Notes: generated by a model not told the origin, from the letters alone. DNA of 64,000 nt from Candidatus Magasanikiibacteriota bacterium (GCA_014729395.1 WJJZ01000006.1:7090-71089), one strand, 5' to 3'. Shown: positions 12,982 through 38,743, counted from the first letter of the stretch. A program made the numbers and translations.

Positions 12982-13899
12982 ATGAAGAGGGCACTTTTGA
13001 TTAATCCACAGTTTAATATAGCAAAGGAGAATTATGACAGCTCAATTTCAGTTGGGCTTTTGAGTATTGCGTCGTATTTGGATAGTAAAGGGATAGGAGT
13101 AAAAATTGTTGATTGCGTACGCGAGACCAACTATTTAAAAAAAATAAGAAAATATGCCCGCAGTACTGATTATGTCGGGATTTCTGTAATGACAACGCAA
13201 TTGTCAAATGCTTTACGTTTATCAAAGCTTGTAAAAAAAGTTAATCCCTCTTGTAGAGTAGTGTGGGGCGGACCACATGCAACTTTTTTTAAGGAGCAAT
13301 GTGTCGAATCAAAATTTGTAGATATGGTATGTGTAGGAGAAGGCGAAGAGACTTTTTATGAAATTGTAAATGGTGTTGATCCGGAGAAAATTTTAGGAAT
13401 CGTTTATAAAAAAGATGGGGACATAAAAAAAACTTCGGCTCGACCTTTGCACGATCCTACAAAAATGCCTTTGTTTAATTGGGATTTGATCGCACCGGAG
13501 GTTTTATATAATTTAAAACTTGTCCCCACTCTCACTTCAAGAGGCTGCCCCCATATATGTTCTTTTTGTATCAACGCCATCCTTAAATTAAAGTGGCGTC
13601 AGAGAACAGCGGAACAGGTACTTGTGGATTTGGAAGTGATAAAAAGTAAAACATATTTTAAAGGTAAAAAGTTAAGATTTTGGGATGAGAATTTTTTTGT
13701 TGATATTAAGCGCGCCAAAACCATAGTAAAGGGAATGATAGAAAGAAATCTTATCACTCCGTGGGAGACAACAGTCCGCGCCAATTATATACGGGATGGG
13801 ATGATTGATAACGCTTTTTTAAAGGATATTAAACAAAGTGGTTGTTATCTGTTATCATTTGGTGCGGAATCCGGTTGTCCCAGAATTTTAAAAAAATAA
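12982..13899 (+). CDS. B12-binding radical SAM protein, N-terminal part (cobalamin-binding domain plus CxxxCxxC cluster RGCPHICSFC). It ends at a TAA inside an A7-T-A8 run.
   Basis: B12-binding-like N-domain followed by the radical SAM cysteine triad. The reading frame is interrupted at 13897-13899. Confidence 0.65.
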   Translation: MKRALLINPQFNIAKENYDSSISVGLLSIASYLDSKGIGVKIVDCVRETNYLKKIRKYARSTDYVGISVMTTQLSNALRLSKLVKKVNPSCRVVWGGPHATFFKEQCVESKFVDMVCVGEGEETFYEIVNGVDPEKILGIVYKKDGDIKKTSARPLHDPTKMPLFNWDLIAPEVLYNLKLVPTLTSRGCPHICSFCINAILKLKWRQRTAEQVLVDLEVIKSKTYFKGKKLRFWDENFFVDIKRAKTIVKGMIERNLITPWETTVRANYIRDGMIDNAFLKDIKQSGCYLLSFGAESGCPRILKK

Positions 13900-14426
13900 A
13901 AAAAATGATTGATCCAAAGGATATCATTAGGTCAGCAAAAATGTGCTTAAAACATGATATTATCCCCCAATATTCTTTTATGATAGGCTTGCCCGGTGAA
14001 GAAAAGAATGAGATGATGGAGACATTGAAATTGATTGATAAATTAGTAAAATTGAGTTCCAAAGTTCAAATTTTAGGCCCACAGGCTTTTAGGCCATACC
14101 CGGGTTCTGAGCTATATGAGGAGTGTGTAATGTCTGGTTGGAAAGCACCGGAAACCCTTTATGAGTGGTCTGATTTGGTTGAAAATGAATTAAATTATTT
14201 GACTGTACAAAATTTCCCCTGGGTTAAACATAAGGATTTTGTGGAATCCATGGAAGCTTATGTAAGATTTGGAGCTCACAATATCAAAAGTGCTTTGGGT
14301 TCAACAGTTAGTAGTAATAAATTATTGAAATTGAGTTTTATTTTGCTATGTAAACTACGCTGGAAATTAAAATTTTTTAATTGGCCAGTTGAATTTAAAT
14401 TAGCTAAAAAGTTTGTTAGTAAATAA
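13842..14426 (+). CDS. C-terminal continuation of the same B12-binding radical SAM protein in the -1 frame (interrupted gene, pseudogene, sequencing indel or recoding site)
   Basis: From ...KKIKKMIDP onward the translation continues the radical SAM domain (IGLPGEE...). Joining at the A-run gives ...ESGCPRILKKIKKMIDP.., a normal ~500-aa B12-rSAM. Confidence 0.55.
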   Translation: MLSVIIWCGIRLSQNFKKIKKMIDPKDIIRSAKMCLKHDIIPQYSFMIGLPGEEKNEMMETLKLIDKLVKLSSKVQILGPQAFRPYPGSELYEECVMSGWKAPETLYEWSDLVENELNYLTVQNFPWVKHKDFVESMEAYVRFGAHNIKSALGSTVSSNKLLKLSFILLCKLRWKLKFFNWPVEFKLAKKFVSK

Positions 14427-15556: not shown

Positions 15557-16626
15557 AAATATTTAGTTTTAGTATTGATAAAAATATATTGGAACCAAAT
15601 TCAATCGTTGCAAAGAGAATGATTTGGTTTGACAATTTTGTTGATAAATACTGTATTATTGTGCCGTCTATAAAAAAAATAAGAGTGAGCCTGTCCTATA
15701 AAATAGAGGTATTTGCTAGTGGTGGTAGATCAAAAATTAGCCAACTTTTTAAAATTTACAAGCTGGCAAACAGGTTACTAAAACAAGAGAACTATGATAT
15801 TATAACCTCTCAAGATAACTATTATATTGGATTTTTAGCTTTAATTTTAGCAAAAAAATTTGATATTGGTTTGGAAATCCAGGTTCACGGTTGGGAAAAG
15901 TATGGAGGGTTAAGAAAAATAATTAGTAATTTTATTTTAAAGAGGGCTAATATTGTACGTACAGTCAGTAAACGTTCAAAAGATAAGCTTGTTAAAGAAA
16001 TTGGCTTAGAGGCTGAAAAGATAGCGGTAATTCCAATTTTTGTAGATACTTCAGATTCTTATGGTTTTGAAAGAGATTATCGTGAAAAAGAAAAAATTAT
16101 TTTTTTGACCGTAAGTAGACTGACTTCTGTAAAAAATATTGGTATGCAAATTGAGGCAATTAAGAAGTTGGTAGAAAATAAATTGCAGGTAGAGTTATGG
16201 ATTGTTGGCAAAGGCGAAGAAGAGAATAACTTAAAGAAAAAAATAGGAGAATTAAAATTAGAGAATTATGTTAAATTACTTGGCTATAAAAATAAGCCGG
16301 AGTTAAATGAAATTTACAAACAAGCTGATTGTTTTTTATTAACTTCACAAAGTGAAGGTTGGGGTATGGTAATTATTGAAGCGGCCGGTTTTGGTCTTCC
16401 AATTATAATGACAGATGTAGGTTGTGCCGGTGAAGTGATTAAAAATGAGATTAGTGGATTGGTAATTCCAGTTAATGACAAAGAGGTATTAAGACAGGCT
16501 ATGAGAAGGTTGGTAGAAGACGTTGAGCTTAGAAAGGGTTTGGGTGTTACTGCTCGAGAAGAGGTTGAAAAATTAGCAGATAGAAAAGAGACCTTAGAAT
16601 TATATTTAGATAATTGGCGTATGTAA
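15553..16626 (+). CDS. GT4-family glycosyltransferase
   Basis: SEGWGMVIIEAAGFGLPIIMTDVGCAGEV motif. 4-bp overlap with the upstream gene. Confidence 0.7.
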   Translation: MKIFSFSIDKNILEPNSIVAKRMIWFDNFVDKYCIIVPSIKKIRVSLSYKIEVFASGGRSKISQLFKIYKLANRLLKQENYDIITSQDNYYIGFLALILAKKFDIGLEIQVHGWEKYGGLRKIISNFILKRANIVRTVSKRSKDKLVKEIGLEAEKIAVIPIFVDTSDSYGFERDYREKEKIIFLTVSRLTSVKNIGMQIEAIKKLVENKLQVELWIVGKGEEENNLKKKIGELKLENYVKLLGYKNKPELNEIYKQADCFLLTSQSEGWGMVIIEAAGFGLPIIMTDVGCAGEVIKNEISGLVIPVNDKEVLRQAMRRLVEDVELRKGLGVTAREEVEKLADRKETLELYLDNWRM

Positions 16627-16628
16627 TT

Positions 16629-17477
16629 ATGCATTCACTAGGTCCTGGTTTGTGTTCCAAGATTAAAATATTTTTTATGAATAAATTTATAATGAATAAG
16701 TTAGTAAAGGCCAAAGCAGAAGCTGAGTCTTTGGCTCATGTTGGCTTATTTTCAAAAACGGATTGTTATTGCTTTTTTATTGGTTACGCGAGGAGTGGTC
16801 ACAGTTTGGTGGCCTCTATCATTGATGCACATCCAAATGCCGTTATAGCTCAAGAATTTCCTGTTGTTGACTATTTAAGACTTGGTTACAATAATCGACA
16901 AATTAAGTACTTAACATTTAAACATGCTAAAAAATTTTACAAAAATGATTATGTTGTTGGTGGGTATAAATATCATATACCAAACCAACATCAAGGTTCT
17001 TTTACTGATATTAGAGTTATAGGTACAAAAAAAGGGGGTAGAAAAAATATTTTTTTTATGAAGGAACCTAATTTGTTAAGTAAAATTCCTGAGAATACAA
17101 AATTCGTACATATAACGAGGAATCCTTATGATATAATGTCAGCGATGATGACTAAGTGGAAAAAGGGTTTTAATTTTCATTTTAATTTGTTTTTTTCAAT
17201 TTGTGATGCAAATTTATTTATCAAACAAAATATTAGTGATAAAAATATACATAATTTGAGACATGAAGATTTTGTTCATGAACCAAAAAGAGAAATTACA
17301 AAGTTATGTGATTTTCTAGGTTTAAAGACGTGCAACAGTTATCTTAACGATTGTGTTTCAATTATAAAAGAAAAACCACATGAAAGGAGATATGAGTTTG
17401 ATTGGAGTAAAGAAATGATCGAAAGAGTTAAAGAAAAAATAGAAGATTATAATTTTTTAAAAGATTATACATTTTGA
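16629..17477 (+). CDS. Sulfotransferase family protein (PAPS-dependent type). The start is uncertain: the ORF opens at TTG 16614, and ATGs at 16629 and 16677 are alternatives.
   Basis: 5'-PSB-like FFIGYARSGHSL near the N-terminus and 3'-PB-like HITRNPYDIMSA mid-protein. Confidence 0.6.
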   Translation: MHSLGPGLCSKIKIFFMNKFIMNKLVKAKAEAESLAHVGLFSKTDCYCFFIGYARSGHSLVASIIDAHPNAVIAQEFPVVDYLRLGYNNRQIKYLTFKHAKKFYKNDYVVGGYKYHIPNQHQGSFTDIRVIGTKKGGRKNIFFMKEPNLLSKIPENTKFVHITRNPYDIMSAMMTKWKKGFNFHFNLFFSICDANLFIKQNISDKNIHNLRHEDFVHEPKREITKLCDFLGLKTCNSYLNDCVSIIKEKPHERRYEFDWSKEMIERVKEKIEDYNFLKDYTF

Positions 17478-17490
17478 AAAATTTTAGTAA

Positions 17491-18576
17491 ATGAATGTTT
17501 TTGAAGAAAATAGAAATATGAAATTATTAATCTTGACTCAAAAAGTAGATGCCAATGACCATGGTGTGCTTGGTTTTTTTCATGGTTGGTTAAAAGAGTT
17601 CGCCAAAGATTGTGAGAATGTAATCGTGGTTTGTTTGGAAAAAGGGGAATTTGACTTACCTGAGAATGTAAAGGTTTTAAGTCTGGGTAAAGAAACATGG
17701 GAATCAAAAATTAAATATCTATATAGGTTTTATAAATATATTATTAAATATAGAAAAGATTATGATGCGGTTTTTGTTCACATGAATCAGATATATGTTA
17801 TTTTAGGAGCGTTATTGTGGAAGGCTTGGAAAAAGAAAATTGGTTTGTGGTATGCACATGGTGCAACCCCATTTAGTTTGAAGGTGGCGGAAAAATTGAC
17901 TGATATGATTTTTACACCATCAAAAAAAAGTTTTAGAGTAAAATCAAAAAAATTAAATGTAGTCGGCCATGGTATTGATATGAATAAATATCAATTAAAA
18001 TCTCATAATAAGAAAAGCGAATTATGTGAAATATTAACTGTAGGAAGAATTTCTCCTATTAAAGATTATGAGACTTTAATTAGAGCAATGGAAAAACTCA
18101 GTAAAAAAGAAAGATACAAACATAAAATTATATTGAGAATCGTTGGTTCGCCAATAACAGAGGAACAAAAAAAATATTTTGATAAAATAAAGAAAAAAGT
18201 TAGAGAAAAAGGTTTATCTGACATAATTAAATTCACCGGTGGAGTTAGTTGTAAAGATATTCATAGTGTATATAAAGAATCAGATATTTTTATACATATG
18301 AGTCAGACGGGAAGCTTGGATAAAGCTATGCTTGAGGCAATGGCGACGGGTTTAACGGTTTTATCTTGTAATGATGCAGCCAGGGAGGTTTTTGGCGAAA
18401 ATAATTGCGATTTATTATATAATATGGCTGACTATGAAGACTTGGCGGAGAAGATGCAATATATTATAGACAACCAAGACAGAGATGGTGATTTGGGTGA
18501 AAGCCTTAGGCAGATTGTTGAAAAAAAACATAATTTAATCAACGTTATCAGAAGGATTTGTACAAAACTTAGTTAA
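17491..18576 (+). CDS. GT4-like glycosyltransferase
   Basis: C-terminal GSLDKAMLEAMATGLTV.S motif and an N-terminal Rossmann-like ILTQK segment. Confidence 0.55.
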   Translation: MNVFEENRNMKLLILTQKVDANDHGVLGFFHGWLKEFAKDCENVIVVCLEKGEFDLPENVKVLSLGKETWESKIKYLYRFYKYIIKYRKDYDAVFVHMNQIYVILGALLWKAWKKKIGLWYAHGATPFSLKVAEKLTDMIFTPSKKSFRVKSKKLNVVGHGIDMNKYQLKSHNKKSELCEILTVGRISPIKDYETLIRAMEKLSKKERYKHKIILRIVGSPITEEQKKYFDKIKKKVREKGLSDIIKFTGGVSCKDIHSVYKESDIFIHMSQTGSLDKAMLEAMATGLTVLSCNDAAREVFGENNCDLLYNMADYEDLAEKMQYIIDNQDRDGDLGESLRQIVEKKHNLINVIRRICTKLS

Positions 18577-18591
18577 GTTTATTAACTTATT

Positions 18592-19320
18592 ATGGAATTT
18601 AAAAAAAAAGAAAAAAAATTTTTAATAGTAGGTACCGGTAGAACCGGATCTTCTCTGCTATCTGCAATACTTTTAAAAAGTGGTGCAGATTTTGGCCTGA
18701 GGTCCAAAGATATTTGGGATAGACAAAAGGGCGATTTTGAACACTCGCTTATTCATGAAGCCTATAAATGGCAATCTAGGGTAGAAAAAATAGACCAATC
18801 AATACTGCCGAATTATTTTACAGTTTCTTTTTTTAACAATATTTGTAATAAGAAAATGGAGCAATTATTGACAGAAGTTGATTATGTAAAATCAAGTCAA
18901 TTAGTCTGGTTGGTTCATAGGGCTAAATACAAATTGGGTTTTGAGGTCAAAGTTATTGGAGTTTACAGGAATTTCTCTGATTATGTGATAAGTAGATATA
19001 AGAAATATGGAAGAAGTCTGGATCACTGGAGAAAAGAGTGGTTGGAGGTAAACAAAACACTTTTTTTGCAGGCTCAAATTATTCCTTCTCTGTTATTAAG
19101 TTATGAAGAAATTGTTGGTAGAAATGAAACTAAATGGATAGATAGGTTGGCACTATTTACAAATATAAGCAGAGAAAAATTAAGTTTTGCAGCCAATGAG
19201 ATAGTAGATAAAAAAAGTCACAAGAGAATTATGCAATATAATTTTGAAGATGACGACACCAGAAGAGTCTATAATCGGTTAAAGATGTTTAGTAATAAGT
19301 CCTCTATAGATAATAGATAA
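18592..19320 (+). CDS. Sulfotransferase family protein
   Basis: FLIVGTGRTGSSLL 5'-PSB-like motif and a mid-protein YRNFSDYVISRY motif. Confidence 0.65.
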   Translation: MEFKKKEKKFLIVGTGRTGSSLLSAILLKSGADFGLRSKDIWDRQKGDFEHSLIHEAYKWQSRVEKIDQSILPNYFTVSFFNNICNKKMEQLLTEVDYVKSSQLVWLVHRAKYKLGFEVKVIGVYRNFSDYVISRYKKYGRSLDHWRKEWLEVNKTLFLQAQIIPSLLLSYEEIVGRNETKWIDRLALFTNISREKLSFAANEIVDKKSHKRIMQYNFEDDDTRRVYNRLKMFSNKSSIDNR

Positions 19321-19356
19321 TAGATTTGGGATTATATAGACAATATTTTAACATAT

Positions 19357-20232
19357 ATGCCAGTAAATAAATGCAATTTATTTTTTATAGTGGGCTCATA
19401 TCGATCCGGTACAACTTTATTGAGGAATATTTTGAATTTACATGAGGACGTGGCCGTGGTGCCGGAAATGCATTTTTTTGACAATTTGATTGCTAACAGA
19501 AAAAAATATGGTGATATTAAAAAAAGAAAAAATAAGGTTGAGCTTGTGGATAACATATTTTTTAAAATAAAGAATTTTAATATTAGCCGTGGTGATTATT
19601 GGGAGAATATCAATTTGGATCATAAGTTATTAAAAAGTAAAATGTTAGACTGTACTGATTTGCGTGAATTATTTTTTGTTTTAGCCAGTTCTTTGTCAAG
19701 CAAGAATTCTTTCTCTGTTTTGATTGAAAAGACTCCGTATAATGTGTTCTTTTTAGAACAAATTACTGAGTTGTTTCCTGAAGCAGGAATAATACACATA
19801 ATTAGAGATGGACGAGAGGTCTGTGCTTCGGCCTGTAAAAGATGGGGTCTTGATTATTTAGGCCCGGCCACCAGGTGGAAAGATTCTATTAAAAGTTATG
19901 AAAAATATAATAAAAAAAATAAAGATAAGAAGGAAAAATTTATAGAAATTAGATATGAAGATTTAGTAGATGAACCAAAAAATACTATAAATAAAATTTT
20001 TAAATTTATAAATTTGGGATTAAACGAAAGTTTTTTTGAAAGAATGTCTGATCTCCCGTCTACAAGTTCATTTACTAGATATAAAAAAAATTTTGGCCTG
20101 TATAAAAGTAATAATTTTAAAAAATTTTTTTCTGATTCAGAACAGGATATAATTAACTATTTACTATATGAAGAGCTTAAGAAAAAAAATATAAGACCCA
20201 AACAACCAAGATTTATTTTTTTAAAAAGATAA
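19357..20232 (+). CDS. Sulfotransferase family protein
   Basis: FFIVGSYRSGTTLL and IIRDGREV (3'-PB RDGR) motifs. Confidence 0.7.
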   Translation: MPVNKCNLFFIVGSYRSGTTLLRNILNLHEDVAVVPEMHFFDNLIANRKKYGDIKKRKNKVELVDNIFFKIKNFNISRGDYWENINLDHKLLKSKMLDCTDLRELFFVLASSLSSKNSFSVLIEKTPYNVFFLEQITELFPEAGIIHIIRDGREVCASACKRWGLDYLGPATRWKDSIKSYEKYNKKNKDKKEKFIEIRYEDLVDEPKNTINKIFKFINLGLNESFFERMSDLPSTSSFTRYKKNFGLYKSNNFKKFFSDSEQDIINYLLYEELKKKNIRPKQPRFIFLKR

Positions 20233-20340
20233 AATTAGAGTTTAGAAGATTGAAATCATTTATTTATATATACTTTCAGAGAATCGGTAGGTTTTATATT
20301 TATAAAAAAATTAGAAAAAAAATAAAAAAATTCTTTTAAC

Positions 20341-21213
20341 ATGAATAAGCCAAGATTACATTATATTGGGATCGGTGGGCAGAAATGCGCAACGAGTTGG
20401 CTATCAAAATGTATCTCTGAACACCCTGAATTAGATATTTTTCCGGGTAAGGAAATTCATTTTTTTAGTGAAACTAAAAAATACAATAAAGGCTTAGAAT
20501 TTTATACAAATTTTTTTAAAGACTGTGATTTCAGTAAGAAGGTGGGGGAGTTCAGTACGACTTATCTGAATTCTTTTAAAGCTGCTGATCGGATTAAGGA
20601 GTATTACCCGGATATTAAAATTATTGTTTCCATCAGAAATCCGATCGATCGAGCCGTCTCACATGTTAGGCATTTATTATCAACCGGAAAAATTAATTAT
20701 TTCCGTAATTGGGATGATCCGTTTTTGATAGAACAATCCCTTATCGAACGTGGATATTATGGAAAATATGTTGAATATTATATCAAACTGTTCGGTAGAG
20801 AGAATATATTGATTATTTTATTTGATGATATTTCGAATAAACCTGACAAAGTAGTTAAAGATATTTATACTTTTCTTGATGTTGATAATTCTTTTAAACC
20901 AAGCAGTATAGATAAAAAATATAATAGTAGTAATGCAAGATCTTTCTCAGCTTTTTGGTTATTAAACAATATATATTTAAAATATAGAAATAATTCATTA
21001 TTTAAAATATCAACATCAATATTTAAAAAAATGGGCATTAATTCAGTTTTGATTAATAATTTTTTTGATAAACTTGGCAAAGTTAAAATAGAAAAAATAA
21101 AATTCAAAAGAAGTGAGTTGATTGAAATATATAGAGATGATATAAAAAAAACGGAACGAATAACAAAGAGAGATTTATCGGATTGGTATACTTTTAATGA
21201 AAAAGAAATATAA
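20341..21213 (+). CDS. Sulfotransferase family protein (subfamily with an IGIG..KCATSW...HPE N-terminus)
   Basis: YIGIGGQKCATSWLSKCISEHPEL and SIRNPIDRAVSH motifs. Confidence 0.7.
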   Translation: MNKPRLHYIGIGGQKCATSWLSKCISEHPELDIFPGKEIHFFSETKKYNKGLEFYTNFFKDCDFSKKVGEFSTTYLNSFKAADRIKEYYPDIKIIVSIRNPIDRAVSHVRHLLSTGKINYFRNWDDPFLIEQSLIERGYYGKYVEYYIKLFGRENILIILFDDISNKPDKVVKDIYTFLDVDNSFKPSSIDKKYNSSNARSFSAFWLLNNIYLKYRNNSLFKISTSIFKKMGINSVLINNFFDKLGKVKIEKIKFKRSELIEIYRDDIKKTERITKRDLSDWYTFNEKEI

Positions 21214-21274
21214 AAAATTATTGTACTTTATATATTAATGTTATAATCAAATAATATAGATTCTTTTAAAAAAT

Positions 21275-22690
21275 ATGATAAGTTTATCTAAGTTTTCAAA
21301 ATTTATAAACAACAACAAGATACCAATTTTTCTATTTTTTTTGGCTCTTTTGAGCGGTTTTTTTTGGAACCACCGTTTTTATTTTCAAGCGATTCCAAGC
21401 GGCGGCGACCAAAGACAATATAGTTGCCTTGCAATCGATATGATCGAAAATGGAACGTATACGGAATGTGGTACTGAAAGTTTCTTAGAACCGGGATATC
21501 CATTATTTTTGGCCAGTATTTTTTTATTTTCAGATACTAGCCCCATTGCTGTGAGATTCGTTCAATTGTTTATTTTTGGTGTTATTGTAGTTTTAATATA
21601 TTTTTTGAGCAGAAGATTATTTGATAGTAAGGTAGCTTTCATAGCAGGGTTATTTACAGCCTTACATTGGAGTCTAGCTAACTATACCGGTTCTCTCATA
21701 CGAGAGGTTTTTTTAGTTTTTTCTATTCTGCTTTTAGTTTATTCATTATATATCGCAGTTTCGAGCAAAAAAAATACACATTTTATAATATCCGGGTTGC
21801 TTTTTGGGGTTGTGGCACTTTCGAATGCTATTATAGAATATTTTTTATTGTTTATAATTATTAATTTTATAATTATATTAAGAAAAAAAATAGAGATAAA
21901 GCAAATTTTTTTAAAGATAGGTTTATTTCTTTTTGCATTTTGTTTAATTTTGAGTCCGTGGATTGTAAGAAACTCTCTCTATTATAATAAACTGGTTGTT
22001 TCGCTTACACCAAAGAAGGGTCATATTTTGAGTATGAGGGCCGCCTTGATGGAGGAGATGTACCCGAATATTCATAAATATTATTTTGGTCATCTTTTTG
22101 GTTATTATTTTGCAGAAAAAGTATATCCGGATTTGGATATTTGGGCGTTTAGGGATTTTAATGCTGCGAATAGCGTCATGTTGGAATTGCGCGAAGAAGG
22201 GTATAATCTGAATCAAATAGATGAAATAATTTCAGAAAGAGCTGTTAATAAAATTATCACACAACCTCATAAATATGTAGCTTTTTGTATTTTAGATTTT
22301 TTAAATTTTAACAGTCCATTGATACCACAAAAAATATTCATGGGTAATTCTTATGTCCATTATACCTTTGCTGAAGGTAGATTCCCAACTGTACCCGGCT
22401 ATGTAAAATCAGGTGTGTTGATATTATTTCGAATCTACTGGTATACATTTTTGTTTTTAGTTATTTATGGTCTTTGTAAAAATATAAAAAATTGGGAAAA
22501 AATAAGTTGGTTTTTTTTGATTATTTTATATTTTAATGGTGTATATAGTGCGGTTCATGCACTCCCTCGCTATGCTGTCCAAATTTATCCTTTTTATATA
22601 ATATTAGCTTCAGCAGGAGTATTAATCTTATTTAAAAAATATAAGCATAAAATCAAAAGTTTAGTCGGTAAATTAAGTAAAACCAAATAA
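21275..22690 (+). CDS. GT-C fold polytopic membrane glycosyltransferase (ArnT/PMT-like, GT39/GT83-type)
   Basis: About 11 TM helices. The first periplasmic loop has a D/E-rich GGDQRQY..AIDMIENG motif reminiscent of ArnT/PMT_2 enzymes. Confidence 0.5.
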   Translation: MISLSKFSKFINNNKIPIFLFFLALLSGFFWNHRFYFQAIPSGGDQRQYSCLAIDMIENGTYTECGTESFLEPGYPLFLASIFLFSDTSPIAVRFVQLFIFGVIVVLIYFLSRRLFDSKVAFIAGLFTALHWSLANYTGSLIREVFLVFSILLLVYSLYIAVSSKKNTHFIISGLLFGVVALSNAIIEYFLLFIIINFIIILRKKIEIKQIFLKIGLFLFAFCLILSPWIVRNSLYYNKLVVSLTPKKGHILSMRAALMEEMYPNIHKYYFGHLFGYYFAEKVYPDLDIWAFRDFNAANSVMLELREEGYNLNQIDEIISERAVNKIITQPHKYVAFCILDFLNFNSPLIPQKIFMGNSYVHYTFAEGRFPTVPGYVKSGVLILFRIYWYTFLFLVIYGLCKNIKNWEKISWFFLIILYFNGVYSAVHALPRYAVQIYPFYIILASAGVLILFKKYKHKIKSLVGKLSKTK

Positions 22691-22693
22691 ATT

Positions 22694-23629
22694 ATGTTCA
22701 TGCCGATTATAAAAAAAATTAGTGTTTTCATACCATTTTTAATAACCGGTCTGATTATATATCTACTTTTTAGTAATTTTGATATTGGACAGACTGTAAG
22801 AATAATCCAAACCGGCTCAAAATTTTTTTTGTTTTTATCAATATTTTTTATTTTTTTGACCACTTTAGTTCTGGCTTTACGATGGAAAATAATGCTTGGT
22901 TTATGCGGGCACAAAGATTCTTATAATAATATATTAAAAAAATATTTAGCGAGCGTGCCTTTTTCCAAAACAACTCCTTCAAATAGTGGAGATTTTATAC
23001 GAGCCGTATATACAAAAAATAAAATTGGTCTTACAAAAGGTTCCGGTATTGTTTTTATGGAAAATTTACTTGATATTTATGTTTTGACCTTTTTTGCGTT
23101 ATTCGGATCCTTAATAAAAGGAATGTTAGGTATATTTTTGATTATTTTTTTTATTGTAGTATTATCGTTTTTTTTACTGTTCATCTTAAATAAAATTAAT
23201 TTATCAAAATTAAGGTTAAATAATAAGTTCAAGCAGAAAATACAGTCTTTTTTTTCTATTTTTAGAGAATTTAAGAAAAATTCCATATCGTTTTTTTTAA
23301 AAATTTTGATCTTGACATCGTCAGCTTGGATACTTGTGATAGGCAGCTTTGTTTGCCTATTCATTGCTTTTGGGATAGATGTTCCCTTTTTTGAAGTTGT
23401 ATTTTTGCAACCGATTATTATTTTTTTAGGTTTGTTGCCGATTACGGTTTCCGGGGTGGGTATAAGGGAGTCGGCAATAATATTTTTTTATGCCGGCTAT
23501 GGATCAGCTGCATCATTAATGGCGGTAGGATTGTCTTATTCATGTTTTTCTGCTATTATTTTACCACTGTTATACCTGCCTTTTAGTTATCAGATTATTA
23601 AGAAAAAGCTTTTTTATGCAAGAAAATAA
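22694..23629 (+). CDS. Flippase-like / lysyl-PG-synthase-TM-family (UPF0104) membrane protein
   Basis: Eight TM helices and an LLPITVSGVGIRES motif. It sits between the GT-C gene and a Dpm1-like GT2, as in polyprenyl-phosphate-sugar pathways. Confidence 0.45.
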   Translation: MFMPIIKKISVFIPFLITGLIIYLLFSNFDIGQTVRIIQTGSKFFLFLSIFFIFLTTLVLALRWKIMLGLCGHKDSYNNILKKYLASVPFSKTTPSNSGDFIRAVYTKNKIGLTKGSGIVFMENLLDIYVLTFFALFGSLIKGMLGIFLIIFFIVVLSFFLLFILNKINLSKLRLNNKFKQKIQSFFSIFREFKKNSISFFLKILILTSSAWILVIGSFVCLFIAFGIDVPFFEVVFLQPIIIFLGLLPITVSGVGIRESAIIFFYAGYGSAASLMAVGLSYSCFSAIILPLLYLPFSYQIIKKKLFYARK

Positions 23630-24503
23630 ATATGAAATAAATGATAAATTGTCAATTTCATTCGTTATTCCCGTTTACAACGAAGAAATAATAATAAGAA
23701 ATGTGCTCGAAGATTTGAAGCAATATTTACGGTCTTTGGATATAAATTATGAAGTCATTGTCGTTAATGACGGTTCAAGCGACGATAGTAAAGAGATATT
23801 GGAATCCATAGATAATATTAGAGTTGTGAACCACCCATACAACAAAGGTTATGGTGCAGCTTTAAAAACCGGAGCCATGTTAGCTCGGTTCAAGTGGGTT
23901 ATGTTTTATGATGGCGACGGACAGCACAAGCCGAAATTAATTGGAGACTTAATTAAACATAATTCTCAATATGATATGATAGTAGGTGCGCGAGTCGGAT
24001 ACAAAGGTCCATGGATTAGGCAGCCGGGAAAAAAAATTTTAGGTGTGTTGGCAAATTATTTGGTAGATTTTAAAATTCCTGATTTGAATTCAGGTTTAAG
24101 GATGGTAAAGAAAGATTTTTTTGTCAAATATATCCATCTTTATCCGGATTCTTTCTCTCTTTCTACGACTATCACCATGGCTTTTTTAAAGGCCGGTTTA
24201 AATGTAAAATATGTACCGATTGAGATAAATAAACGGGTGGGTAAGAGTTCGGTCTCACCCAGGGACGCACTTAAAACTTTTATTTTGCTCATGCGAATGA
24301 TAGCCCTATTTGCGCCAATGAGAATTATTTTTCCAATAAGTCTTATATTTTTTGTTATGACACTGGTTTCTGTATCTTATGATCTATGGTTAAAAAATAT
24401 TTCTGATATTTCAGTAATTTTATTTGTTACAACAATTTTATTTTTTATTTTTGGAGTGATTTTAGATCAAATATCAGCCGTTAGAAGGGAGTTGAATAAA
24501 TAA
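23616..24503 (+). CDS. GT2 glycosyltransferase, Dpm1/ArnC-like polyprenyl-phosphate sugar synthase with C-terminal TM helices
   Basis: ISFVIPVYNEE, VIVVNDGSSDDS, NKGYGAALKTG and DGDGQH motifs plus two C-terminal TM segments. Confidence 0.75.
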   Translation: MQENKYEINDKLSISFVIPVYNEEIIIRNVLEDLKQYLRSLDINYEVIVVNDGSSDDSKEILESIDNIRVVNHPYNKGYGAALKTGAMLARFKWVMFYDGDGQHKPKLIGDLIKHNSQYDMIVGARVGYKGPWIRQPGKKILGVLANYLVDFKIPDLNSGLRMVKKDFFVKYIHLYPDSFSLSTTITMAFLKAGLNVKYVPIEINKRVGKSSVSPRDALKTFILLMRMIALFAPMRIIFPISLIFFVMTLVSVSYDLWLKNISDISVILFVTTILFFIFGVILDQISAVRRELNK

Positions 24504-24507
24504 TTAT

Positions 24508-25038
24508 ATGGCTAAATTAGATTATTTAGGTGAAAAATTATTAGATTCAAGAATTAAAGTTTCAATGCCTTATATAACCGGACGTCTTTTAGATTTGGGG
24601 TGTGGAACTAATAAGCTGGTTAGAAATTATAGAGGAGAAGGAGTGGGAGTTGATGTTTTTGATTTTGGTGATGTGGATTTGATTGTGGAAGACAGCAGTA
24701 AAATTCCTTTTGAAGATGAAAGTTTTGATACGATAACCATATTAGCCGCTTTAAATCATATTCCAAATAGGGAGCGGGTTTTACAGGAGATGCACCGATT
24801 ACTAAAGCCGGACGGTAAGTTGTTGGTAACGATGATCAGCCCGTTAATTTCTTTTTGTTGGCATACTTTGCGTGCTCCTTGGGACAGGGATCAAAAAGAA
24901 AGAGGAATGGAAGAAGGGGAAGTTTATGGTATAACCCCCCAAGAAATGATTAAAATGCTGGAGACAGCTGGTTTTTGTGTACAAAGTAAAAAACGTTTTA
25001 TGTTAGGTTTAAATAGACTATATATAGTTCAAAAGTAA
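24508..25038 (+). CDS. Class I SAM-dependent methyltransferase
   Basis: LLDLGCGTNKL motif I and an LLKPDGKLLV post-I region. Confidence 0.6.
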   Translation: MAKLDYLGEKLLDSRIKVSMPYITGRLLDLGCGTNKLVRNYRGEGVGVDVFDFGDVDLIVEDSSKIPFEDESFDTITILAALNHIPNRERVLQEMHRLLKPDGKLLVTMISPLISFCWHTLRAPWDRDQKERGMEEGEVYGITPQEMIKMLETAGFCVQSKKRFMLGLNRLYIVQK

Positions 25039-25044
25039 AGTTGT

Positions 25045-27036
25045 ATGTGTGGTATATTTGGAGCAGTTATTCCAAAAAAAAATAAATTCGATGATAAAGA
25101 ATTAGAAAAGTTTACACAAAAACTTTTTAAATTTTCTGAATCAAGAGGTAAAGAAGCTTCGGGTTTAGCAAGATTGTTTCCAAAAAAAATTGATGTTATA
25201 AAAGAACCTTTTCCAAGCTCTTTTTTAACAAAAATACATAAATTCAAAAAAATTATAAGTGAAAAATCTGACTCTTTTGTAATTATGGGCCATACCAGAT
25301 TGGTTACGAATGGGACACTTGAAAAAAAAGAAAATAATCAACCGGTAGTAAGAGAAGATATTGTTACCGTCCATAATGGAATTATAGTAAACGAAAAGGA
25401 TATATGGTCCGAGATTAAAGATGTTGAACGTGAGTTTGAAGTGGATACGGAACTAATCCCGGTTTTGTTAAGGAAATATTTAAAAAACGGTGACAGTTTT
25501 TCGATTGCAATTTCAAAGACGTTTTCTAAAATAGAAGGTATGGCTTCTATTTGTGCTTTTTTTACGGATTCAGACCATATTTTACTTGCCACAAACAATG
25601 GTTCATTGTATTTTTTAAAAGATAAAAATAATTATCTTATATTTGCATCTGAATATAATATTTTGAAATCTCTGTGTAAAAAATTTAAAAGTCAATTTAC
25701 AGAGGAAAACATTAAGAAATTGAATGCAAACAAAGCTTGTCTTGTGAATACGAGGGATTTGGAAGAGTTAATTTTTTTTGATTTAACTGATGAAAAAGCA
25801 GTCGCCAATAATAATTTGAACATTATAAATACCACCAAACGTACTATTAATGTGTTACCGAGTGAGAAAGCAAATCATTATAATATTACTCAAAATGTAA
25901 ATTATAATGATAGACAAGATTTTATTGATAATTCTGATTATGAAAAGATAAAAAAAATGCGTAGGTGTAAAATATGTATTTTGCCCGAGACTATGCCTTT
26001 CATAAATTTTGATAAAAATGGAATTTGCAATTATTGTAAAAGTTATAAGAAAATTAAACTAAAAGGAAAAGAAAAATTGAATGATGACATTAATAAATAT
26101 TTAAATAAAAAAACAGACAAGATTGTCGTTGCTCTAAGTGGTGGAAGAGATTCTTGCTACGGACTCCATTATGCGAAAACGGTTTTAGGGCTGAATGTGG
26201 TAACTTTTTCTTATGATTGGGGTATGATTACCGACTTGGCTCGACGTAACCAGTCTAGAATGTGTGCCAAATTGGGTGTAGAGCATATTTTAGTATCAGC
26301 CAATATAAAAAGAAAAAGAGAAAATATTAAAAAAAATGTAAAAGCCTGGCTTAGAAAACCTGATTTGGGAACCATACCTTTGTTTATGGCCGGAGACAAA
26401 CAATATTTTTATTATGCTAACAAAGTAATGAAGCAAACCGCATCTAGAGCTATAATAATGAGTGAAAATAATTTGGAAAGAACGCATTTTAAACATGGTT
26501 TTTGTGGGGTTGAACACAATGATAATATCAGGCCGGCTTATTTTTTGTCCAGTGGGGATAAATTTAAGATGATGCTGTATTTTTTTAAAAAGTTTGTTGG
26601 AAATCCCGGCTATATCAATAGTTCGCTACTTGATTCATTTGGTGGTTACCTATCTTATTATTTCGTTCCGCATAATTACATTTATTTGTTTAATTATGTT
26701 CCGTGGCTAGAAAGTAATGTTAATAATGTTTTGGTTAACGAATACAATTGGGAGTTAGCTGGCGACACTGAATCAACTTGGCGGATAGGAGATGGGACAG
26801 CTCCATTTTATAATTATATTTATTATACCGTAGCCGGATTTACAGAAAACGATACTTTTCGTAGTAATCAAGTTAGAGAAGGGATTATATCAAGGGAGGA
26901 AGCTTTAGAATTGGCAGATAGAGACAATCAACCTAGATTGGAATCGATAAAATGGTATTGTGACACAATCGGTATTGACTTTAAAGAAAGTTTAAAAATT
27001 ATTAATTTAATTCCCAAATTATATGGTGATGTTTAA
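25045..27036 (+). CDS. Two-domain amidotransferase. The N-terminal class-II (Ntn, asparagine-synthase-type) glutamine amidotransferase domain is fused to a PseA/WbpG-like N-acetyl-sugar amidotransferase (Zn-ribbon plus PP-loop ATP pyrophosphatase).
   Basis: Starts with MCGIFG (catalytic Cys2) and has GHTRLVTNG and VHNGIIVN. The middle has CKICILPE...CNYC and the PP-loop VVALSGGRDSCY. Confidence 0.6.
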   Translation: MCGIFGAVIPKKNKFDDKELEKFTQKLFKFSESRGKEASGLARLFPKKIDVIKEPFPSSFLTKIHKFKKIISEKSDSFVIMGHTRLVTNGTLEKKENNQPVVREDIVTVHNGIIVNEKDIWSEIKDVEREFEVDTELIPVLLRKYLKNGDSFSIAISKTFSKIEGMASICAFFTDSDHILLATNNGSLYFLKDKNNYLIFASEYNILKSLCKKFKSQFTEENIKKLNANKACLVNTRDLEELIFFDLTDEKAVANNNLNIINTTKRTINVLPSEKANHYNITQNVNYNDRQDFIDNSDYEKIKKMRRCKICILPETMPFINFDKNGICNYCKSYKKIKLKGKEKLNDDINKYLNKKTDKIVVALSGGRDSCYGLHYAKTVLGLNVVTFSYDWGMITDLARRNQSRMCAKLGVEHILVSANIKRKRENIKKNVKAWLRKPDLGTIPLFMAGDKQYFYYANKVMKQTASRAIIMSENNLERTHFKHGFCGVEHNDNIRPAYFLSSGDKFKMMLYFFKKFVGNPGYINSSLLDSFGGYLSYYFVPHNYIYLFNYVPWLESNVNNVLVNEYNWELAGDTESTWRIGDGTAPFYNYIYYTVAGFTENDTFRSNQVREGIISREEALELADRDNQPRLESIKWYCDTIGIDFKESLKIINLIPKLYGDV

Positions 27037-28090
27037 TGTAGCAAAATCAATTGTCAAAAATAAATTTAATAAAATTTCCTATCCTTCTTTTATTACCTAT
27101 TTAATCACATGGCGTTGTAATAGCCGGTGTATTTTTTGTGATGTGTGGAAAAAGAGAGCCGGGCAAATTGATGAGCTTGATATCGATGAAATAGAAAAGG
27201 CATTTTCTCAATTAAAAAAGCTCGATGTCTTGCGTTTGAGCGGGGGAGAGCCTTTTCTTAGAAAAGATTTGGCAGAAGTGATAAATTTGATCGATAAAAT
27301 TAACAAGCCAAGTCTAATTCATTTAACGTCCAATGGAATGCTGACCGAAATAATATCTGAAACTGTAAAGAAAATTAAGCCTTTAAATAAAATCCATATC
27401 AAGATTTCAATAGATAATGTGGGTGAGAAACATGATAAAGTTCGACAAATACCCGGCGCATACAATAAGGCAATGGAGACAGTAAGGATGTTGTCTAATG
27501 TCAGTAAAGAGACCGGTCTTCATGTTGGGGTTAATCAAGTGGTCGTGAATGAATCTGATATAGATTCGTATTTTGAATTAAAGAAAATTTTGAGTGAATA
27601 TAATGTACCGATTTATCCGGTTATTGCCAATCAACCAACTAATAGTCTGTATAGTGACAGTGGTGTGGTAGACCCCAACATATCTTTCAAACCTTTTGGG
27701 GATTTTTCAAAAGAGGGTATTAAAAAATTTATGAAGATTTTACTGAGACATGGTAAAGAGGTGAATGATTTTAAAGAGCAAATGGTGGATAGGTACCATT
27801 TAAAGGGTTTGTATAATCGTTTAGTAGAGGAGAAAAATAATCCTAATCCGAAGTGTGTAGCATTGAATAACCACCTAAGAATTTTACCAAATGGTGATAT
27901 TCCGGTATGTATGTATAATGGTTCTATAGTTGGTAATTTGAGAAATGAAAAATTTAAAGATATTTGGTTTGGAGACAAAATTAAAAAATATAGAACTTAT
28001 GTTAATAATTGTCCCGGTTGTTGGCAGAGTTGTGAGACAGCCGTAAGTGCTATTTATACCGGTGATATTATGAAAGGTATGTTTTATTAA
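27023..28090 (+). CDS. Radical SAM / SPASM-type enzyme
   Basis: CNSRCIFC (CxxxCxxC) near the N-terminus, a GGEPFL glycine-rich motif, and a C-terminal Cys cluster CPGCWQSC. It overlaps the upstream amidotransferase by 14 nt. Confidence 0.65.
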   Translation: MVMFNVAKSIVKNKFNKISYPSFITYLITWRCNSRCIFCDVWKKRAGQIDELDIDEIEKAFSQLKKLDVLRLSGGEPFLRKDLAEVINLIDKINKPSLIHLTSNGMLTEIISETVKKIKPLNKIHIKISIDNVGEKHDKVRQIPGAYNKAMETVRMLSNVSKETGLHVGVNQVVVNESDIDSYFELKKILSEYNVPIYPVIANQPTNSLYSDSGVVDPNISFKPFGDFSKEGIKKFMKILLRHGKEVNDFKEQMVDRYHLKGLYNRLVEEKNNPNPKCVALNNHLRILPNGDIPVCMYNGSIVGNLRNEKFKDIWFGDKIKKYRTYVNNCPGCWQSCETAVSAIYTGDIMKGMFY

Positions 28091-28136
28091 TATATTTATT
28101 TGGTAACTGTCTGATGTTTATATTAATATAATTACG

Positions 28137-28967
28137 ATGAATATAGTTTTTATACTTGGGAGTGGACATTGTGGTTCAACATTGCTTGACCTTATTTTGG
28201 ATTGTCATTCTAAAATAATCGGGGTTGGTGAATTTGAAAATGTAGGTAAGGAGAAACTGTGTAGTTGTGGCAGGGATTTTGAGGAGTGCGAGCTTTGGAA
28301 AAATATTTTAAAGCATAGGGATTTGTCGAAATTGAAGATATTTAGAACTAAAAAAGATTTTTTGTTAAACAAAAATAATTTTTATTACTATAAAAAAGAG
28401 ATGCGGTCGGTTGATTTAAATTCCTATATTACTGAGAATGAAAATATGTTTGATCAGGTTTTGGGTTTTTTTGACCAAAAGAAGGATTTTATAGTTGATT
28501 CTTCAAAGAACGTTGATAGATTTGAGCTACTTTTTAAAAGTAATTATATTAGACCGATTATTTTACATGTTGTCCGTGATGGTCGGGCTGTAACCTGGTC
28601 ATATTTTAAAAAGTACAAGAAAGCTATGCCTTATATGTGGAAATGGTTTGCACAAAATTTTAAAATTTATTATCTAAAAAAAAGAAACAAAGCGGATTAT
28701 GTTTTTGTACGTTATGAAAACTTAGCTAAAAATCCTAAAAAAGAAATTGAACGTATACTTAATAGCTTAGGTTTGGTTTATGAAGAGAATATGTTAAATT
28801 TTAGAAATTTTACTCATCATCAGGCTGGTGGTAATAGAATGCGTTTGTCCGGCACTAATGAGATAAAAGAAGATGTAAGTTGGAAAAAGAATTTACCTAT
28901 GAAATATCGACTGTTATTCAATATTTTGTTTGGCTGGTTAAATTTTTATTATGCAAGAAAAAGGTAA
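28137..28967 (+). CDS. Sulfotransferase family protein
   Basis: VFILGSGHCGSTLL and VVRDGRAVTWS motifs. Confidence 0.65.
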   Translation: MNIVFILGSGHCGSTLLDLILDCHSKIIGVGEFENVGKEKLCSCGRDFEECELWKNILKHRDLSKLKIFRTKKDFLLNKNNFYYYKKEMRSVDLNSYITENENMFDQVLGFFDQKKDFIVDSSKNVDRFELLFKSNYIRPIILHVVRDGRAVTWSYFKKYKKAMPYMWKWFAQNFKIYYLKKRNKADYVFVRYENLAKNPKKEIERILNSLGLVYEENMLNFRNFTHHQAGGNRMRLSGTNEIKEDVSWKKNLPMKYRLLFNILFGWLNFYYARKR

Positions 28968-29850
28968 TAAATTTAAAATTAATTTTATTGGCGTGGGGAC
29001 ACCAAGAAGCGGTACTACATGGATATCCAAATGTTTATCTGAACACTCGCAAATTTGTTTCTCAAAGGAAAAAGAAACTCATTTTTTTGATAAAGATTAT
29101 AATTTTGACAAGGGTCTGGAATACTACCGGTCTTTTTTTGAAAATAAAGAGAAGCAAGAGGGTGTGATTCTGGGTGAATTTACACCGAGCTATTATCGTG
29201 ATGAGAAGTGCGCAAAAAGAATTAAAACATTTTTTCCTGATGTAAAAATTATATTATGTTTGAGAAATCCCGTTGATAGAGCTCTGTCTGATTATCGTTA
29301 CAATAAAAAGAGAGGTGCTAAGCTGGGTCAAAATTTACTTGAAGAGCCTGAATTAAACTTGGATGAAAGAGTGGTGTCAGACGGTTTTTTTTATAATCAT
29401 TTAGAAAAGTTTTTAATTCCTTTTAATTTCAATAATATTCATATTATCCTGCATAAAGATATTAAAAAACACCCGGATAAAGTTCTTAGAAAGCTTTATG
29501 ATTTTTTGGGGGTGAATAATGATTTTATTCCGTCCTCGCTACATCAGAGGGTCAACACCACCGAAGGCACCAATTATCGTTACCCGGCGATAAATAGAAT
29601 TATTAATTATAGAAAAAAATTGAAAAACGATGCTGTAGGTCGATTTATATTAAATATTTTTAAATTACTTGGCATTGGTTATTTGTCAAAAAAGTTAATT
29701 CAAGCCAATAAGACATCCAAACAAAAAAATATTTTTTCTGAAGAGGAAATTAACAATTTTAAAATAAAATTATTTGATGTTTACTTAAAGGATATTAATA
29801 AATTGGAAGACTTGATAAAAAAAGATCTTAGTATATGGAAACAGATTTAG
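28951..29850 (+). CDS. Sulfotransferase family protein (IGVG..RSGTTW...HSQI subfamily)
   Basis: FIGVGTPRSGTTWISKCLSEHSQI and LCLRNPVDRALSDY motifs. Confidence 0.7.
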   Translation: MQEKGNKFKINFIGVGTPRSGTTWISKCLSEHSQICFSKEKETHFFDKDYNFDKGLEYYRSFFENKEKQEGVILGEFTPSYYRDEKCAKRIKTFFPDVKIILCLRNPVDRALSDYRYNKKRGAKLGQNLLEEPELNLDERVVSDGFFYNHLEKFLIPFNFNNIHIILHKDIKKHPDKVLRKLYDFLGVNNDFIPSSLHQRVNTTEGTNYRYPAINRIINYRKKLKNDAVGRFILNIFKLLGIGYLSKKLIQANKTSKQKNIFSEEEINNFKIKLFDVYLKDINKLEDLIKKDLSIWKQI

Positions 29851-38733: not shown

Positions 38734-38743
38734 ATTTTAAATT

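Follow-up and report, generated by a model that had tools for sequence, protein, structure and literature searches.

Within a 64,000-nucleotide (nt) stretch of DNA from a Candidatus Magasanikiibacteriota bacterium (GCA_014729395.1, WJJZ01000006.1:7090-71089; the whole stretch is referred to here as the window), three consecutive genes at 21275-24503 raise the question of how a sugar loaded onto a lipid carrier inside the cell might cross the membrane and be used outside it. A preliminary description had read them according to the ArnC/ArnT or Dpm1/PMT logic: a family 2 glycosyltransferase (GT2) makes a lipid-linked monosaccharide, a UPF0104 flippase-like protein moves it, and a GT-C-fold glycosyltransferase (GT-C) transfers it. 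The three genes were confirmed as consecutive on the plus strand and encode a PMT_2-family GT-C (21275-22690, 471 amino acids (aa)), an LPG_synthase_TM/UPF0104 membrane protein (22694-23629, 311 aa), and a GT2 of the GtrB/ArnC/DPMS type (23616-24503, 295 aa); the families and architectures required by this logic were found in all three. The GT-C gene is followed after 3 nt by the LPG_synthase_TM gene, which overlaps the GT2 gene by 14 nt (spacing -14 nt). We estimate at about 0.6 the probability that a three-component system for extracytoplasmic glycosylation, of the Gtr, Arn, and Gac kind, has its core in this region, which lies in a Wzx/Wzy, sulfotransferase-rich surface-glycan locus.

In such a system, the GT2, whose family and fold are described below, would load polyprenyl phosphate with one sugar, taken from a nucleotide sugar, at the cytoplasmic face of the membrane. 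The LPG_synthase_TM protein would then move the polyprenyl-phosphate-linked sugar to the outer leaflet, in place of GtrA, ArnE/F, or Wzx-like proteins, and the GT-C, with Asp45 as the likely catalytic residue, would attach it to an acceptor on the outer side. This acceptor would most likely be the repeat unit or polymer of the locus polysaccharide, decorated with a side branch. The process had been called periplasmic; transfer outside the membrane is retained in our reading, but the term is loose for the host of this locus, Candidatus Magasanikbacteria (Patescibacteria; candidate phyla radiation, CPR), a group with a single membrane.

Families and architectures of the three proteins

The 295-aa GT2 matched Glycos_transf_2 in Pfam (PF00535, E=5.5e-29, 101.7 bits against a cut-off of 23.3), and its top sequence matches in the PDB were GtrB from Synechocystis (1.1e-16), ArnC (1.5e-12), and DPMS (4e-8). 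The motif D99-G-D101-G-Q103, together with H104, was invariant in 31 GT2 homologues and aligned with the DADLQ motif of GtrB. The AlphaFold2 model (predicted local distance difference test (pLDDT) 89.7) showed a GT-A domain and, C-terminal to it, long helices (215-232, 234-259, and 264-294), and the two hydrophobic segments, starting at residues 221 and 259, correspond to a C-terminal transmembrane (TM) hairpin. When the model was searched with Foldseek, the top 25 matches were exclusively ArnC, GtrB, and DPMS, with full-length alignments (291-310 columns) and E-values of 1e-17 to 1e-13, whereas other GT2 enzymes appeared from approximately 1e-10, an E-value gap of about 1000-fold or greater. 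This full-length structural match bears out the earlier view of a Dpm1-like GT2 and identifies the modelled protein as structurally a polyprenyl-phosphate glycosyltransferase of the GtrB/ArnC/DPMS type. Its best NCBIfam models were AglJ (75.6 bits, cut-off 325), PpgS (70.2, cut-off 370), PgfS (64.7, cut-off 500), and ArnC (54.2, cut-off 529), all of which are polyprenyl-phosphate sugar synthases, along with PgaC, a polysaccharide synthase; every one of these scores is far under its equivalog cut-off.

With 4175 proteins at E<=1e-10, the GT2 family is a large one; its conservation within Patescibacteria is high, the best 119 proteins after the self-match being 50-61% identical to the window protein. 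The homologues of the GT-C (31-53% identity) and of the LPG_synthase_TM protein (25-38%) were far more divergent. A conserved synthase beside a variable transferase matches the pattern of Gtr systems.

Classification of the 471-aa protein by hidden Markov models (HMMs), which the preliminary description had framed as PMT_2 versus ArnT, placed it above the cut-off for PMT_2 (PF13231, E=1.9e-11, 44.9 bits, cut-off 26.1). No NCBIfam family was matched at E<=0.001, which includes ArnT if NCBIfam contains a model for it, and the protein was not assigned to the ArnT family (GT83). Nor was it assigned to the PMT family (GT39): PF02366 PMT, PF16192 PMT_4TMC, and MIR gave no Pfam match at E<=0.01, although some of its homologues carry weak precomputed PF02366 matches. 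The AlphaFold2 model was of high confidence (pLDDT 91.5, predicted template modelling score (pTM) 0.90); all of its top Foldseek matches were GT-C-fold proteins, and its fold is that of the GT-C superfamily (GT-C_A).

In an alignment of 28 GT-C homologues reaching down to 21% identity, D45 was invariant, as were P73, Y75, Q97, E144, and R432, and Y49 and A53 were at least 90% conserved. In the model, TM1 (helix 15-37) is followed by helix 44-58, and D45 is found at the beginning of the latter. The Lys-rich N-terminus suggests a cytoplasmic position, which would place the D45 loop outside the membrane, and Asp45 is the likely catalytic residue. A first-loop acidic residue, whose loss would have pointed to a transporter, is thus present and invariant. 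This finding, together with a model that matches GT-C enzymes and meets transporters and G-protein-coupled receptors only at chance level (Foldseek E ~0.8, probability <=0.1), led us to reject a transporter identity for the 471-aa protein.

A sequence search of PDB chains with the GT-C returned no match. A profile of the family gave weak matches to TMEM260, a protein O-mannosyltransferase (E=1.2e-4), and STT3 (E=1.2e-3), which indicates a superfamily relationship without pointing to an acceptor. The profile of close homologues retrieved 423 clusters (50% identity) at E<=1e-30, and the window GT-C belongs to a modest subfamily within the very large PMT_2 group. Several members of this subfamily, namely P0187 (821 aa), P0298 (839 aa), and open reading frames (ORFs) of 819-825 aa in the related loci L035 and L038, carry a C-terminal extension of approximately 350-380 residues.

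Adjacency to a polyprenyl-phosphate-type GT2 suggests a lipid-phosphate-linked sugar as the putative donor of the GT-C. GT2-GT-C fusion proteins also exist (P0014, P0037, and P0043), and P0014 backs the coupling of the two enzymes in general terms. We rejected P0014 as a fusion of the window GT2 type: only its first 123 residues align, without the DGD motif, and its GT2 part resembles a different GT2 that adjoins the GT-C in locus L012.

The 311-aa protein between the two enzymes matched LPG_synthase_TM in Pfam (PF03706, E=1.7e-37, 129.9 bits, cut-off 33.4, model positions 2-296 of 302) and the NCBIfam model TIGR00374 "flippase-like domain" (83.4 bits, cut-off 43.2). With eight hydrophobic segments (approximately eight TM helices), it is a member of the MprF flippase-domain family (LPG_synthase_TM/UPF0104/COG0392). 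Its homologues were 25-38% identical, and a sequence search of PDB chains gave no match.

Recurrent linkage and the candidate translocator

Related loci were gathered via the GT-C, by looking up exact homologues and by scanning both species-representative genomes and metagenomes. After removal of near-duplicates, 24 loci with at least 5.5 kb of flanking sequence were retained, and genes within 8 kb of the GT-C were counted. The named sources were all Patescibacteria (Portnoy-, Falkow-, Azam-, Yanofsky-, and Saccharibacteria, and Paceibacterota). LPG_synthase_TM genes were counted with an iterated HMM of ten sequences; a single-sequence phmmer search and a four-sequence HMM had missed the divergent copies in L010, L012, and L013, which are recognised by Pfam. 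GT2 genes were typed by their phmmer scores to the two GT2 proteins of the window, as iterated HMMs of both types merged.

An LPG_synthase_TM gene was found near the GT-C in 13 of the 24 loci and directly adjacent to it in seven. By our estimate, which assumes a background of a few PF03706 genes per megabase, this frequency would be far above chance. A GT2 of the 295-aa window type was present in 10/24 loci, and a GacI-type GT2 with DUF2304 in 2/24. The order is GT-C, LPG_synthase_TM, GT2 in the window and L021, LPG_synthase_TM, GT-C, GT2 in L001 and L002, and divergent in L011 and L017. Gene order that differs between lineages suggests selection on the linkage rather than one frozen inherited operon. 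When the search was started from LPG_synthase_TM homologues, a GT2 was found within 3.5 kb in all three loci and a PMT_2 GT-C in two of them. The grouping of the GT-C and LPG_synthase_TM genes as a module is thus upheld by related genomes in which the genes are shuffled. Given long ORFs in DNA of 30% G+C, strong profile matches, and this recurring linkage, the triad is not a product of chance.

GtrA-like proteins were encoded near the GT-C in six of the 24 loci and adjacent to it in four; those in L001, L002, and L006 matched PF04138 weakly (E 3e-4 to 3e-3). None of the four loci with an adjacent GtrA-like gene had LPG_synthase_TM nearby, and no GtrA-like protein was found in 5/7 loci with an adjacent LPG_synthase_TM gene. 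This near-exclusive adjacency fits GtrA-like and LPG_synthase_TM proteins as alternative fillers of one role. In the window, no GtrA-like candidate was found with PF04138 or with an HMM built from the GtrA-like proteins of related loci. The only small multi-TM ORF there is a 3-TM DUF2304 protein (49153-49482). Thus, the window has the synthase and GT-C that characterise Gtr-type systems together near a glycan locus, without a flippase of the GtrA family.

Published work makes a flippase role plausible. The TM domain of MprF from P. aeruginosa is a promiscuous, energy-independent lipid scramblase, whose substrate preference may, according to its authors, stem from proximity to the fused lipid-modifying enzyme (PMC11980842). 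A role of UPF0104 as a glycosylation flippase was predicted in 2015 (PMC5898192), and the flippase slot of three-component systems is filled by unrelated families, including GtrA, SMR-type, and MATE-type proteins (PMC11127046). For stand-alone LPG_synthase_TM members, lipid translocation has been predicted only (PMC5898192, PMC12713373). Taking family, adjacency, and comparative genomics together, we slightly favour a role of the 311-aa protein as translocator of the lipid-linked sugar.

The two enzymes could also act as proposed while the LPG_synthase_TM protein does something other than flip the donor: it might return polyprenyl phosphate inward, as DedA/UptA and DUF368/PopT do, or be a general scramblase, with the donor crossing via another protein or unaided. 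The non-specific scrambling by the MprF TM domain (PMC11980842) agrees with this, as do the two loci that contain both kinds of protein and the seven that contain neither, and flipping has not been directly shown even for GtrA or the MATE-type protein (PMC11127046). However, adjacent GtrA-like and adjacent LPG_synthase_TM genes almost never occur in one locus, and, the DUF2304 protein aside, no small multi-TM ORF, whether GtrA-like, EamA-like, or of another kind, is present in the window. As a scramblase works in both directions, this explanation overlaps with the flippase role; as a separate explanation we consider it very unlikely.

Several observations weigh against a three-component system with LPG_synthase_TM as its flippase. 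All functions have been assigned from sequence, and no equivalog-level NCBIfam match names the sugar of the GT2 (the best, AglJ, reaches 75.6 against 325 bits). Neither LPG_synthase_TM nor a GtrA-like protein was found within 8 kb of the GT-C in 7/24 loci; both were present in 2/24, so that the two may not be equivalent. In four loci (L010, L013, L033, and L035), the GT-C is paired with LPG_synthase_TM but a GtrB-type GT2 is missing from the surroundings. HexSDF and GpgSDF, the characterised bacterial operons that include a stand-alone MprF-like protein, act on glycerolipids and not on polyprenyl carriers (PMC10128005, PMC12713373). Finally, the acceptor has been proposed from genomic context.

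Between the GT2 and LPG_synthase_TM genes, three related loci encode a conserved protein of 530-560 aa (L011 5428-7020(-), L015 7761-9395, and L017 2107-3789). Compared with each other, the copies reach E-values of 1e-84 to 1e-151; they show faint pectate-lyase/ulvan-lyase hints without a confident Pfam match; no counterpart was found in the window.

Acceptor of the sugar and comparison with known systems

The triad lies within a co-directional, densely packed glycan locus of approximately 40 kb. The Wzx/Wzy context invoked for it earlier is real. A Wzx-type flippase (Polysacc_synt, 35573-36823, minus strand), a polyprenyl glycosylphosphotransferase (43858-45249, minus strand, TIGR03025 above cut-off), and a Wzy_C+TPR membrane protein (6184-8217) were all identified. 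In the last, 12 TM segments are predicted and the TPR domain is C-terminal. It may act as the Wzy polymerase or as a ligase, or it may join the glycan to a surface protein in the manner of O-oligosaccharyltransferases such as PglL/WsaB; no NCBIfam model discriminates between these candidates. The locus further contains eight GT4, eight sulfotransferase, two UDP-sugar dehydrogenase, and three epimerase/dehydratase genes. Because the GT-C subfamily always occurs among GT4, Wzx, and sugar-tailoring genes and the GT39 hallmarks are missing, the polysaccharide of the locus is the acceptor that we favour, with reasonable though limited confidence.

The preliminary description had suggested that single sugars are added to an acceptor, possibly by O-glycosylation of a Ser/Thr-rich surface protein at the 5' end of the window. 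A Ser/Thr-rich ORF is indeed present at 79-1521 (S+T = 25.6%) and probably runs off the window. The GT-C would then place the lipid-linked sugar on Ser/Thr residues of this or another surface or S-layer protein, as in the actinobacterial Ppm1/Pmt system; its Pfam family is named after protein mannosyltransferases, and the top profile match among PDB sequences is the O-mannosyltransferase TMEM260. Against this stand the missing PMT, MIR, and PMT_4TMC matches and the position of the ORF, approximately 20 kb from the triad and behind opposite-strand genes. In 13 loci checked for such an ORF (L001-L013, redundant pairs included), one was found near the GT-C in L013 only, about 7 kb away, and the GT-C otherwise lies amid GT4, Wzx, and tailoring genes. 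Protein O-glycosylation of the Ser/Thr-rich protein is left without support, and we regard protein acceptors as unlikely.

A second candidate for a Ser/Thr-rich acceptor, the 1063-aa protein encoded at 1868-5059 on the minus strand, was rejected on its composition (S+T 11%). It is a predicted lipoprotein rich in Asp, Glu, Gly, and Cys (D 15.6%, C 7.5%), with six stretches that individually pass as MopE-type putative metal-binding motifs (PF11617); its region has 54% G+C, compared with approximately 30% for the locus. The protein encoded at 5237-6031(-) (264 aa) has similar Cys-rich motifs and a similar C-terminal region.

The acceptor might instead be a lipid. In that case, the LPG_synthase_TM protein would flip a glycerolipid-based glycolipid (cf. 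HexF and GpgF), the GT-C would decorate an outer-leaflet lipid or lipoglycan (cf. ArnT on lipid A and PimE on PIMs), and the membrane surface rather than the polysaccharide would be altered. Stand-alone MprF-like proteins have been tied to identified lipid products in glycolipid operons only, with the flippase step itself predicted (PMC10128005, PMC12713373). The membership of HexF and GpgF in such operons gives a lipid or lipoglycan acceptor some weight, and the four loci that lack a nearby GtrB-type GT2 are consistent with it. However, HexS and GpgS are GT-B enzymes (monogalactosyldiacylglycerol (MGDG)-synthase or GT4 type), whereas the window GT2 matches polyprenyl-phosphate GT2 enzymes over its full length; no polysaccharide deacetylase gene adjoins the triad in the window, and the triad sits in the middle of a polysaccharide operon. 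Glycolipid remodelling is quite improbable in our view.

Among the closest known systems are the three-component Gtr systems for O-antigen glucosylation of Shigella and Salmonella (GtrA flippase, GtrB GT2, and a GtrC-type GT-C). They share with the window a GtrB-type GT2 next to a GT-C, a Wzx/Wzy polysaccharide setting, and the greater conservation of the synthase (50-61% against 31-53% identity in the window family). Unlike them, the window has no GtrA (PF04138); an 8-TM LPG_synthase_TM gene lies between the two enzyme genes, the module has sugar-tailoring genes, and the host belongs to Patescibacteria and not to the lipopolysaccharide-bearing proteobacteria. The Arn pathway, which modifies lipid A through ArnA/B, ArnC, ArnD, ArnE/F, and ArnT, resembles the window in joining the module to sugar-tailoring enzymes, and the related locus L016 carries an Arn-like set. 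It differs in its flippase family; moreover, the window GT2 scores 54 bits against the ArnC cut-off of 529, and the GT-C matches no NCBIfam model. A lipid A acceptor is not expected in this organism.

In 2015, Makarova, Galperin, and Koonin predicted an archaeal neighbourhood of the same three families: arCOG00899 (UPF0104 flippase) with arCOG00563, a PMT/STT3-like GT-C (e.g., MJ_1079), and arCOG00897, an AglD-like GT2 (e.g., MJ_1080) (PMC5898192). The functional prediction was the same, and the window GT2 finds its best NCBIfam match in AglJ, the model for a GT2 of archaeal N-glycosylation. In contrast to the archaeal triad, which is tied to S-layer N-glycosylation, the window triad is bacterial and lies in a polysaccharide cluster. 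No experimental follow-up of the archaeal triad was found in the literature searched. HexSDF of C. difficile and GpgSDF of P. aeruginosa likewise have a stand-alone LPG_synthase_TM/UPF0104 protein in an operon with a lipid-acting glycosyltransferase (PMC10128005, PMC12713373). These operons contain a GT-B synthase acting on glycerolipids and a deacetylase, and no GT-C, whereas the window has a polyprenyl-phosphate-type GT2 and a GT-C.

The kind of system is therefore well known, its UPF0104 variant was already predicted in archaea, and the NCBI family name is already "flippase-like". The unusual part of the module is the carrier-moving protein from the MprF flippase family. New are the module in Patescibacteria, the alternation of LPG_synthase_TM and GtrA-like genes beside one GT-C subfamily, the six-gene unit, and the corrected role of DUF2304; what results is a correct annotation of a known module type and no new mechanism. 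The alternation is useful circumstantial evidence on which proteins flip polyprenyl-phosphate sugars, an unsettled question. Patescibacteria are mostly uncultivated, and those in culture are episymbionts for which contact with a host at the cell surface is essential (PMC12206443). Little has been learned of the assembly and variation of their surface glycans, and the locus offers a concrete prediction: a lipid-linked monosaccharide route would decorate a sulfated Wzx/Wzy glycan outside the membrane, with an MprF-type scramblase in the textbook place of GtrA.

Downstream genes, the second pair, and the wider locus

Three further plus-strand genes follow the GT2 closely. They encode a class I S-adenosylmethionine (SAM) methyltransferase (24508-25038, 176 aa, Methyltransf_11 E=2.2e-16), a class II glutamine amidotransferase fused to a WbuX-like N-acetyl-sugar amidotransferase (25045-27036, 663 aa), and a radical SAM/SPASM protein (27023-28090, 355 aa, Radical_SAM and SPASM in Pfam). 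The successive gaps are 4, 6, and -14 nt. The 663-aa protein contains GATase_7, GATase_6, and PP-loop domains (Pfam) and matched TIGR03573 (WbuX) with 111 bits over model positions 1-341 of 344, under the cut-off of 203 bits. The radical SAM/SPASM protein reached no NCBIfam equivalog cut-off.

Similar enzymes recur in the related loci. A SAM methyltransferase is encoded beside or near the GT2 in L001, L002, L006, L015, L017, L018, L019, and L020, with generic similarity only to the window protein (E 1e-5 to 1e-11). The 663-aa amidotransferase has a close homologue in L016 (E=2e-68), and it recurs in L021, downstream of the same GT-C, LPG_synthase_TM, GT2 order. In L018, a near-orthologue of the radical SAM/SPASM protein (E=8e-152) is flanked by a methyltransferase on one side and a GtrA-like and PMT_2 pair on the other. 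L018-L020, found via the GT2, together encode GT2, nitroreductase, methyltransferase, deacetylase, B12 radical SAM, and radical SAM/SPASM proteins. The Arn-like set of L016 (5294-12199) comprises LPG_synthase_TM, a GFO/IDH oxidoreductase, a DegT aminotransferase, a GT2, a formyltransferase, a methyltransferase, and the homologue of the GATase and WbuX-like protein; this metagenomic contig ends before any GT-C is visible.

Owing to the tiny gaps and the related cassettes (L016 and L018-L021) that repeat the tailoring theme, the three downstream genes probably share an operon with the triad, giving a six-gene unit at 21275-28090. The module of three genes described earlier thus holds as far as the triad itself is concerned, but the unit is wider by three genes, of which those for the amidotransferase and the radical SAM/SPASM protein have close counterparts in related cassettes. 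By analogy with ArnA/B/D in the Arn pathway, the three enzymes probably tailor the sugar; tailoring of the nucleotide sugar and of the lipid-linked sugar are both compatible with the sequence. A scan of 20000-29000 did not define the ends of the operon: 59 promoter-like sites were found, compared with 47.8±7.2 in shuffled controls, and 5 terminator-like sites, compared with 4.3±2.3, with no signal above controls.

A broader and tentative interpretation, which we hold to be doubtful as a whole, is that Patescibacteria share a cassette around the very conserved GtrB-type GT2. Its recurring tailoring enzymes (SAM methyltransferases, B12/SPASM radical SAM proteins, a deacetylase or amidotransferase, and nitroreductase/FrhB-like proteins) might build an unusual polyprenyl-phosphate-linked sugar on or for the carrier, for example, a methylated or acetamidino amino sugar. 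The MprF-type scramblase would be interchangeable with GtrA, and lineage-specific GT-C enzymes would attach the sugar. If true, this would be a group-specific route of cell-surface modification, and it would be the first time in bacteria that the MprF flippase fold is seen to act on polyprenyl-linked sugars.

A second mini-module repeating the theme, with a GT2 and a 3-TM protein, had also been proposed. Both of its genes are real. The plus-strand gene at 48377-49036 encodes a soluble, 219-aa GT2 of the GacI/PpgS type (NF058614 PpgS, E=2.1e-50, 171 bits, model positions 5-223 of 226, under the cut-off of 370 bits). It is followed after 116 nt by a gene (49153-49482, plus strand) for a 109-aa membrane protein with three predicted TM segments that matches DUF2304 (PF10066, E=1.3e-22, 80.5 bits, cut-off 25.5). 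Where such pairs have been studied, the small protein activates its GT2; in M. tuberculosis, Rv3632, the DUF2304 counterpart, stimulates PpgS (10.1101/180810). By analogy, the window protein would be a GT2 activator subunit, the counterpart of GacJ/Rv3632, rather than a flippase, so that the repetition of the theme would not extend to a translocator.

The pair thus has the composition of the GacI/GacJ and PpgS/Rv3632 pairs, a soluble PpgS/GacI-type GT2 adjoining a DUF2304 3-TM protein, and is probably a lipid-linked donor synthase of the GacI/GacJ type, the donor probably carrying N-acetylhexosamine (HexNAc). The same two families occur in the GacI/GacJ/GacK/GacL system of Streptococcus pyogenes and the PpgS/Rv3632/Rv3779 system of Mycobacterium tuberculosis; unlike these, the window pair has no adjoining GT-C or flippase gene, and its GT2 falls short of the PpgS cut-off (171 of 370 bits). 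Among the annotated window ORFs of at least 120 aa, no further PMT_2 GT-C was found. In L003 and L052, a GacI-type GT2 and DUF2304 pair lies beside a GT-C of the window subfamily, an arrangement from which we suggest that the window GT-C may use the second donor too; alternatively, the partner GT-C may lie outside the window.

The eight sulfotransferase-family genes of the locus lie at 16614-21213, 28137-29850, 34295-35233(-), and 36879-37826(-). Genes for an adenosine 5'-phosphosulfate (APS) kinase, a CysQ-like phosphatase, and a CysH-like 3'-phosphoadenosine 5'-phosphosulfate (PAPS) reductase (157.5 bits, cut-off 154) were found at 37927-39913; no sulfate adenylyltransferase was recognised within the window. 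This content suggests that the surface polysaccharide of this Patescibacteria genome is heavily sulfated. Sulfotransferase genes also flank the GT-C in the related locus L001.

A gene for a B12-binding radical SAM protein appears to be split into overlapping ORFs in different frames (12982-13899 and 13842-14426; 305 and 194 aa). In related loci, the intact homologues have lengths of 464-483 aa, and the split is probably a frameshift or an assembly error. Between the phosphoglycosyltransferase gene and the epimerase gene with the GacI/GacJ-type pair, a secreted subtilase of 679 aa is encoded (45306-47345); its top model is mycosin, far under the cut-off, and its C-terminal half appears repeat-rich by eye, possibly FG-GAP/VCBS-like. 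Farther downstream, a 111-aa ORF (55973-56308) was discarded as spurious, as it spans the genes for tRNA-Glu(CTC) (55959-56032) and tRNA-Met(CAT) (56270-56346), which are separated by a spacer of approximately 237 nt.

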